NCBI RefSeq assembly: GCF_041248615.1 | Contig: NZ_CP158426.1 | DNA length: 64,000 bases | Origin: Escherichia coli | GTDB lineage: Bacteria; Pseudomonadota; Gammaproteobacteria; Enterobacterales; Enterobacteriaceae | Strand: one strand, 5' to 3' | Shown: positions 3,001 through 6,000 of the stretch, piece after piece | How positions within the stretch are numbered: position 1 is the stretch's first letter | Layout: each line of letters begins with the position of its first letter | Position numbers: made by a program

Positions 3001-6000
3001 TAAGCCCACCGATTCTTGCGGCGATGATGCTGGTGATGGGCTGGCGCGGGATGTTTATTACCATTGGTGTACTGGGGATTTTTCTCGCCATCGGCTGGTA
3101 TATGCTCTATCGCAACCGCGAGCACGTAGAACTGACTGCCGTTGAACAAGCTTATCTCAATGCAGGTAGCGTCAATGCCCGCCGAGATCCGCTCAGTTTT
3201 GCCGAATGGCGCAGCCTGTTCCGTAACCGCACAATGTGGGGAATGATGCTCGGATTCAGTGGCATCAACTACACTGCGTGGCTGTATCTGGCCTGGCTTC
3301 CTGGTTACCTGCAAACAGCCTATAACCTGGATTTAAAAAGCACAGGGTTGATGGCGGCTATCCCTTTCCTGTTTGGGGCTGCCGGGATGCTGGTCAACGG
3401 TTACGTTACTGACTGGCTGGTCAAAGGGGGAATGGCTCCGATTAAAAGCCGTAAGATCTGCATTATTGCCGGGATGTTCTGTTCTGCCGCCTTTACGCTG
3501 GTCGTACCGCAAGCGACAACATCCATGACGGCGGTTCTGCTGATTGGCATGGCACTGTTCTGTATTCACTTTGCCGGAACATCCTGCTGGGGCTTGATCC
3601 ACGTCGCAGTTGCTTCTCGCATGACGGCGTCGGTGGGCAGTATCCAGAACTTTGCCAGCTTCATCTGCGCCTCTTTTGCGCCGATCATTACTGGTTTTAT
3701 TGTTGATACCACCCACTCATTCCGTCTGGCACTAATCATCTGCGGTTGCGTCACCGCAGCGGGGGCACTGGCGTACATCTTCCTGGTTCGTCAGCCGATC
3801 AACGACCCGCGTAAAGATTAAACTCCCTATGCCCGATAACATTTTGCTTATCGGGCATTTTTATGGCGATTAAAACGTTTCCCAATTCTCGCCGCTATCT
3901 GCCACGGCCATTTTACGCGGCGTAGCTGGCGTCACGGTTTTTACTACAGCCGATGTTTCACGCTGCTGTTGCTGCTGTTGCTGAATCCGGAACACTGCCA
4001 CAGCTTCGGTCAGGCGACTGGCCTGCTCTTCCAGCGCGGCAGCGGCGGCGGCAGATTCTTCCACCAGCGCGGCGTTCTGTTGAGTTACCCGGTCCATCTC
4101 AGCAACCGCTAATCCAACCTGATCGATACCACGGCTCTGCTCATCAGAAGCAGAAGCAATTTCGCCCATAATGTCCGTCACGCGGGTCACGGCACTGACA
4201 ATCTCCGCCATTGTTTCCCCTGCGCTTTCGACCAGCGTAGAGCCAACATCCACTTTCCCCACCGAGTCTTCAATCAGGCTTTTAATTTCACGAGCCGCCT
4301 GGGCGCTGCGCTGGGCCAGATTACGCACTTCTCCCGCGACCACCGCAAAACCGCGCCCTTGCTCACCCGCGCGCGCTGCTTCAACCGCCGCGTTCAAAGC
4401 CAGAATATTGGTCTGGAAGGCAATGCCGTCAATTACGCTGATAATATCGGCGATTTTCTGCGAACTGGTGGAGATATCGCGCATAGTCTGCACCACGTTA
4501 TCCACCACTTTGCCGCCGCGTTGCGCCGTTTCAGAAGCACTTAACGCCAGCTGGCTGGCCTGGCGCGCATTTTCGGCGTTCTGCTTCACCGTTGCGGTCA
4601 GTTGCTCCATGCTGGCTGCCGTCTCTTCCAGCGAAGCGGCCTGTTGCTCGGTGCGCGAAGAGAGATCGTTATTACCGGTGGCGATTTCGCTGGCACCGCT
4701 ATAGATGGCATTGGCCCCGTTGCGCACATCACCGACGGTACGCATCAGCTCTCCCTGCATATGGCGCAAACTCTCTGCCAGTTGCCCCATCTCATTAGAG
4801 CCATCTACCTCAATCGGTTTCACCAGATCGCCGCCTGCAATATGACGAATGCTGTCAATCAGGCGATTCATTGGCGCTACCAACGAGGCTTTAATACCGA
4901 ACCAGACGGCGAAGATGACCGCCAGTACGACGATCATCACGCCCACCAGGATCCACATCGCCTGGCTGTAGGAGGCATTATTATCGCTGACGGCGATATC
5001 ATAGAGCCGATCGTTTTGCTCCATGTAAGCCACATACTGCTTCTCGAAACCGTCCTGATATCCCTGGGTCGGCTGATCAAAGAACTCGTTGATTTTGCCT
5101 GCACCTAACAGTTGGATCAGCTCCGCCAGCGCATTGTGATAAATATCGTAATTACGTTTGATCTCTGCCGCTGCGGCGGTGCTCTGACGCGGGTCACGCG
5201 GCAACGCTTCGTAATCCGCCCAGTTTTTTTCCGCCTGTTTCAGCGAAATACTGGCACTCTGCATCAGCTCAGCAACGGTTGAACCGCTACCAATATTATT
5301 CTGATCCATCATGTAGCGGATACCCGCGCGGTTGAGGGTGTTACGCGTCTGCAACAACGCAACCCAGCTGCCATTCAGCGTGGATTGCTGCTGGCGAATG
5401 GTTTGTAAAACAGTGAAATTTTCTTTGTCATTCTTTAAGGCATTAAAGAACAGACCGCCTGATGTCAGTTGTAAAAGGCCAAAAACGGCCAAAACCAGCA
5501 GTAAGCTGGTCACAATTTTGATACGTTTTAACATGGTTTCTCTTTCCTGTGGACCGATGCAAGATTTTCGGCCTGGAAAGCAAAAACTTTATGAAAAGGT
5601 GTAACCCGCCATCCATGGAAAAACCAGGCGCTGGTTATCAGATATTAAAAAGTTATTCATTATCGCCCGGGATGTCTTCTTGTCGGGAATTACCCAGAGC
5701 AATAAATTCCTCTAACAGATGGGTTAACTGTTGCATTTTCTCGGCAGTAAACTGAGCTTCAATCTGCCGATAGGCTTCTTCAATCTGTGTCTGAGCGCGG
5801 TTATACAGGGCCTGCCCCTCTTTGGTCAGCGAGATATAGAGCTTCCGCTGATCATTGATCGGCTTTAATCGCAACACTAAACCGTCGCGTTCCATCCGCG
5901 TGAGGATCCCGGTCAGGCTTGGGCGCAAAATGCAGGCGCGATACGCCAGATCGTGAAAATCCATTGATGGGCTTTCCGCCAGAATACGCACGATGCGCCA

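Follow-up and report, generated by a model that had tools for sequence, protein, structure and literature searches.

Introduction

Chemoreceptors that carry a C-terminal pentapeptide of the xZxxZ type are classed as pentapeptide-tethered (PMC7390727). In Tar the pentapeptide NWETF stands at the end of an unstructured arm of 34 aa which tethers CheR and CheB, and engineered changes in the length of this arm shift the reach of CheR linearly (PMC10561060, PMC8609364). With Tar tethers of 22, 29, 34 and 46 aa the peak of CheR was displaced by 0.128 +/- 0.048 nm per residue, or by 0.233 +/- 0.100 nm per residue in an alternative fit, and the spacing between neighbouring methylation sites is 1.05 nm (PMC10561060). 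In the serine receptor Tsr the tether is counted from I517, and its shorter length (30 residues as against 34 in Tar) has been tied to the positions of the methylation sites (PMC10561060). Residues 1-517 are taken as the conserved part of Tsr by the Parkinson laboratory (PMC4692393).

The present study deals with a glutamine tract in the tsr gene of an Escherichia coli strain. The gene lies in a stretch of 64,000 nucleotides of contig NZ_CP158426.1, which as a whole is referred to here as the window. Tsr of the window likewise ends in an arm of similar length which is predicted to be unstructured, finishes in NWETF and would tether CheR and CheB. It differs in having a homopolymer and a DNA repeat, which the Tar arm does not contain, and the length variants of Tar are engineered, not natural (PMC10561060). 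Bacterial coding polymorphisms of the VNTR type are the other described class with which the tsr tract can be compared. A perfect short direct repeat, in-frame copy changes by whole units and recurrence across backgrounds are common to both, whereas tsr has only one to three copies of the repeat and shows a single state per clone among the genomes listed.

Seven glutamines in Tsr belong to the standard allele in thousands of annotated genomes and are present in PDB 3ZX6. The chain of this entry is an engineered chimera (Af1503 HAMP-Tsr); where it was compared with the window protein, over 209 C-terminal residues, no difference was seen, the seven glutamines and the tail being the same. PDB 6S1K is the 551-aa K-12 form. 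No published description of the tract as a polymorphism was found, which is a weak negative as most subscription journals lay outside the search.

Results

The tsr gene of the window and its glutamine tract

The gene in the window is E. coli tsr. The following features were placed on it:

3870..5534, minus strand: coding sequence of the serine chemoreceptor Tsr, 554 aa and stop codon (ORF list, Pfam, NCBIfam)
3963..3983, minus strand: seven-glutamine tract, residues 518-524, CAG CAA CAG CAG CAA CAG CAG (read from the sequence and the allele alignment)
3975..3983, minus strand: first unit of a 9-bp repeat, CAGCAACAG (Tandem Repeats Finder, period 9, 100% match)
3966..3974, minus strand: second unit of the 9-bp repeat, CAGCAACAG (Tandem Repeats Finder, period 9, 100% match)
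3963..3965, minus strand: partial third unit, CAG, lengthening the direct repeat (sequence reading)
3888..3986, minus strand: flexible tether of 33 aa, I517-E549, which joins the conserved signalling domain to the pentapeptide (PMC4692393, PMC10561060, AlphaFold2)
3873..3887, minus strand: C-terminal pentapeptide NWETF, xZxxZ type (translation; function from PMC7390727, PMC8609364)

The protein scored 1223 bits against the NCBIfam Tsr equivalog NF011615 (cutoff 947), with 1-554 of 554 positions aligned, and 754 against the Tar model NF011622, which is under the cutoff of 900 of that model. Pfam placed TarH at residues 1-176, HAMP at 217-263 and MCPsignal at 328-484. The gene is flanked by lgoT-like and lgoR-like ORFs, the same neighbours being found in annotated K-12, O157 and other E. 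coli, and the corresponding region carries the tsr annotation in the E. coli genomes listed. MG1655 differs from the window tsr at 27 nucleotides over 1.66 kb, and from this closeness to the K-12 gene the window receptor would be expected to sense serine. NWETF stands at the very C-terminus, which places the window Tsr among the pentapeptide-tethered receptors at which CheR and CheB dock. In some receptor homologues of other genera, Pantoea stewartii among them, NRETF, NWEKF, DWETF or HWETF was seen in place of NWETF. Elsewhere in the window an ORF of 1,746 aa runs on the plus strand (44205..49445).

K-12 Tsr shares with the window the gene, the locus beside lgoT and the architecture of TarH, HAMP, MCPsignal, tether and NWETF. 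It differs by one 9-bp unit fewer, with four glutamines and a tether of 30 residues as against 33 in the window, and its tail carries two substitutions (T to A in TPATP, G to E in SGENWETF). The initial annotation had described a glutamine run at 3960-3985 of the window, in an ORF of 554 aa as against 551 aa for K-12 Tsr, and had reckoned with about three extra glutamine codons. The run is real and its seven codons lie inside that span. Both protein lengths were right (AG100 and MG1655 have 551 aa), as was the number of extra codons, the K-12 tract being CAG CAA CAG CAG with four glutamines.

Tandem Repeats Finder reported two periods at 3962..3983, a period of 3 with 78% match and a period of 9 with 2.4 copies and 100% match. 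Glutamine makes up 7.9% of Tsr, at which runs of at least seven are expected at about 1e-5, and the longest glutamine run did not exceed six in any of 20,000 shuffles of the Tsr protein. The seven-glutamine run is thus far beyond chance. A sequencing or assembly artefact was ruled out, as the tract and its immediate flanks are exactly repeated in 3,800 complete genomes.

Position of the tract in the tether

A position of the tract in the C-terminal tether had also been proposed, and it was borne out: counted from I517, the tether begins one residue before the tract (518-524). An AlphaFold2 model of the monomer, built with 60 homologues (pTM 0.36), stops the long C-terminal helix at residue 513 and gives pLDDT below 50 for residues 519-554. 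The linker of the window is thus predicted to be unstructured, and its 33 residues fall within the range of about 30-35 of pentapeptide-tethered receptors. In this model the glutamine tract sits at the root of the disordered tether for CheR and CheB. The proposal that the length of the tether affects the recruitment of CheR and CheB agrees, as regards CheR action, with the published data on Tar (PMC10561060). Carried over from Tar to Tsr, these data would give a shift in CheR reach of about 0.4 nm, and up to 0.7 nm, for a step of three residues, which would be a small effect.

A second homopolymer was observed in tsr, a run of six alanines (residues 495-500; 4035..4052, minus strand) encoded by a GCGGCA repeat of period 6 (Tandem Repeats Finder, 4036..4054). 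In K-12 numbering this run lies between the methylation sites E493 and E502. Its length is polymorphic too, OkiPb01695 having four alanines through a 6-bp deletion, which takes two residues out of a helix and would shift the heptad register. Strain 500111 (NZ_CM129039.1) carries a 33-bp in-frame deletion in tsr at about window positions 4033..4065, by which 11 residues including methylation site E493 are gone and NAALEEQ is left. In this strain lgoT beside tsr is annotated as a pseudogene.

Length alleles in complete E. coli genomes

With 301 nt of the 3' end of tsr as query, matches were obtained in 5,382 of the 5,426 complete E. coli genomes. The length alleles were counted by match spans and by allele-specific words, as megablast splits indel alleles into two perfect pieces (71-nt query); the words were built so that the other alleles give no 28-nt seed. 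This set is redundant and rich in K-12, BL21 and O157 clones, and the percentages given below are shares of the 5,382 genomes, not population frequencies.

7 codons, all forms: about 4,058 genomes, 75% (identity band of a gapped blastn search, 10-Gln query)
7 codons, tract and 5-6 flanking bases identical to the window: 3,800 genomes, 71% (exact 32-mer of the 7-Gln allele)
4 Gln, the K-12 form: 1,208 genomes, 22% (41-mer specific to the 4-Gln allele)
10 Gln: about 60 genomes, about 1% (1,208 subtracted from 1,269; upper bound of 91 genomes by a rank argument)
Interrupted 7-codon form QQEQQRQ: about 40 genomes, under 1% (gapped-blastn identity band; read in two genomes)

In samples of 60 genomes taken at even spacing, 44-46 had seven glutamines, 12-13 had four and one had ten. 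The allele spectrum was also read directly. All alleles read consist of one, two or three CAG CAA CAG units (CAGCAACAG) followed by CAG, which gives four, seven or ten glutamines and proteins of 551 aa (K-12, BL21), 554 aa and 557 aa, respectively. The K-12 tract is one 9-bp unit short and those of SCU-111 and NY1601 have one unit extra. No allele with five, six, eight or nine glutamines was present among the genomes read. As a refuting observation the initial annotation had named the same seven-glutamine tract in K-12 and other strains; K-12 is without the seven glutamines, but most other strains have them. The tract of the window belongs to an ordinary allele of a gene that is well known, and the variation at this place is a minor natural length polymorphism.

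Some rare variants were read as well, namely QQHQ in GF43 and R516L together with seven glutamines in MS1050 and TUM1223. A divergent tsr allele (WP_000919593.1; E66 and LR-27), which is 50-66 SNPs away from the other 14 alleles aligned, has the tract QQEQQRQ. It may belong to an old lineage or have been acquired from a cryptic clade of Escherichia. Three matches to the 3' end of tsr, all of them with seven glutamines, fell on plasmid-labelled records, and two copies were present in one genome.

Recurrence on matched haplotypes

For the SNP distances, 15 tsr alleles were aligned over 1.66 kb. BEN2908 and HS13-1 (four glutamines), CFT073 (seven) and SCU-111 (ten) belong to one tsr clade and are only 6-11 SNPs apart. 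The nearest allele to that of 33E (four glutamines) is that of O157 (seven), at 14 SNPs, and the two ten-glutamine alleles, of NY1601 and SCU-111, are separated by 34 SNPs.

The flanks of the tract were compared over about 36 nt on the upstream and 45 nt on the downstream side. Alleles with four glutamines stand on at least four flank haplotypes and those with ten on two, most of which have a twin among the seven-glutamine alleles. Over this distance the pairs BEN2908/CFT073, 33E/O157 and NY1601/O104:H4 are identical, and MG1655 (four glutamines) is one base apart from ATCC 8739 (seven). These pairs show the recurrence of the length changes on matched haplotypes, and its simplest reading would be that a single 9-bp unit was lost or gained several times independently.

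The region downstream of tsr is itself variable. It contains lgoT and lgoR in the window (lgoT at 2460..3821), in K-12 and in O157, and a pair of TRAP transporter permease genes in CFT073, BEN2908, HS13-1, PSJ-12 and SCU-111. All three tract lengths were found with either downstream neighbour, lgoT or the TRAP transporter.

Within clones the tract was uniform: the listed K-12 and BL21 derivatives all have four glutamines and the listed O157:H7 genomes all have seven. As each of these groups shows one form only, the changes appear to be slow. A phase-variable contingency locus was considered and rejected, the changes being in frame and each clone having one state among the genomes listed.

Direction of change

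The direction of the change could be read from orthologues, in which the conserved F-R-I is followed by seven residues before the next Arg or its equivalent:

Leclercia Tsr: FRIQQDQQKAR
Enterobacter cloacae Tsr: FRIQQEQQKAR
Citrobacter werkmanii Tsr: FRIQHDQQRAR
Escherichia species representative, 95% identical: FRIQQAQQRQHE
Divergent E. coli E66 and LR-27: FRIQQEQQRQRE, codons CAG CAA GAG CAG CAA CGC CAG

The codons of E66 and LR-27 already form an imperfect 9-bp repeat. The outgroups used here are the more distant Enterobacteriaceae together with the two divergent Escherichia alleles; E. albertii, E. fergusonii and Salmonella are outside this set. From residue 517 to the pentapeptide, the tether has 32-36 residues with a mode of 33 in 15 close orthologues among the matches listed, and a tether of 30 residues occurs in none of these 15. 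The corresponding lengths are 33 in the window, 30 in K-12 and 36 in the ten-glutamine allele. The NCBIfam Tsr model NF011615 has 554 positions, which matches the seven-glutamine length.

The seven residues kept in orthologues and the tether mode of 33 indicate that the length of seven codons is the ancestral one. It follows from this polarity that K-12 would carry a derived 9-bp deletion and that the window is unexpanded. The tract had been introduced as 'expanded', which is the wrong direction: the seven-codon tract is the majority allele (about 75%) and has the length of the outgroups, and the K-12 tract is most probably a contracted minority form (22%).

Discussion

The tsr gene of the window is, very probably, an ordinary allele of majority and ancestral length, in which a slippage-prone 9-bp repeat sometimes loses or gains one unit with a small effect on CheR reach. 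A segment of the type QQ-E/D-QQ-R/K-Q/A would have been the ancestral state, and in E. coli proper it would have turned into a perfect 9-bp direct repeat, two copies of CAGCAACAG plus CAG. Such a repeat would be open to slipped-strand mispairing during replication. Loss of one unit would give the 551-aa form with four glutamines found in K-12 and BL21, and gain of one unit would give the 557-aa form with ten. The CAA interruptions would fix the register at 9 bp and not at 3 bp, which can account for the presence of four, seven and ten glutamines only. The proposal of a slippage-driven length polymorphism can be kept in this modified form: alleles of four, seven and ten glutamines are best accounted for by repeat-mediated change, but the step is the 9-bp unit and not the single CAG or CAA triplet. 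Slippage as the mutational mechanism is suggested by the repeat itself and by the pattern of the alleles. Gene conversion between alleles over very short stretches could likewise carry a tract length from one background to another.

The tract lengths might instead go back to one ancient deletion and one ancient duplication, each of which was then spread by homologous recombination. Recombination is frequent in E. coli, tsr has a mosaic gene tree, and the gene downstream is lgoT on some backgrounds and the TRAP transporter on others, all of which would suit such a history. However, the four-glutamine alleles have at least four immediate-flank haplotypes, most of them identical to a seven-glutamine allele or one base away from it. 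As these flanks match their seven-glutamine twins, import would have had to happen at least three times, each time through a conversion tract of less than about 60 nt, and spread from single events appears unlikely.

It was also considered whether the repeat acts as an adaptive tuning knob, in which heritable steps of three residues in the tether, selected by niche, set the reach of CheR and CheB and the speed and precision of serine adaptation. The changes are recurrent in both directions, and in Tar the length of the tether measurably shifts the concentration profile of CheR (PMC10561060). In addition, the tether is kept at 32-36 residues in the close orthologues listed despite its unconserved sequence, and conservation of length without conservation of sequence points to selection on the length. 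Against this, no association with host or niche was visible in the sampled rows, and the single form in each of the listed K-12, BL21 and O157:H7 groups is not that of a fast contingency locus. The predicted step of about 0.4 nm is well under the methylation-site spacing of 1.05 nm (PMC10561060), and the frequencies fit drift together with a deletion-biased mutation process. We regard an adaptive role of this kind as quite improbable.

That the window tract is a derived expansion of an ancestral four-glutamine tract by CAG/CAA trinucleotide slippage is very unlikely and largely refuted, for although the reference strain K-12 has four glutamines and four-glutamine alleles occur on several backgrounds, the seven-codon length is found in about 75% of genomes, an interrupted QQxQQxx segment is present in every close orthologue examined among the matches listed, the tether of 33 is the family mode and one of 30 is in no close orthologue listed, and intermediates of five, six, eight or nine glutamines were not seen among the genomes read.

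With the window tract regarded as an allele of ancestral length at a slippage-prone repeat, the reference strains appear in a different light. The Tsr of K-12 and BL21 on which quantitative studies have been done has a tether of 30 residues. About three in four E. coli genomes, and all 15 close orthologues sampled (mode 33), have a longer one, and this calls for caution in work on chemotaxis. The argument in which the tethers of Tsr and Tar were compared (PMC10561060) rests on the K-12 allele, whereas the common allele has 33 residues. It is conceivable, at a low probability, that the 9-bp repeat is a natural, recurrent three-state tether switch of 30, 33 and 36 residues, which measurably retunes the reach of CheR and CheB and serine adaptation. 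If this were true, the K-12 receptor behind quantitative models of chemotaxis would be an atypically short-tethered variant. The natural series of four, seven and ten glutamines offers ready-made variants of tether length with which the tethered-particle model can be tested on Tsr.
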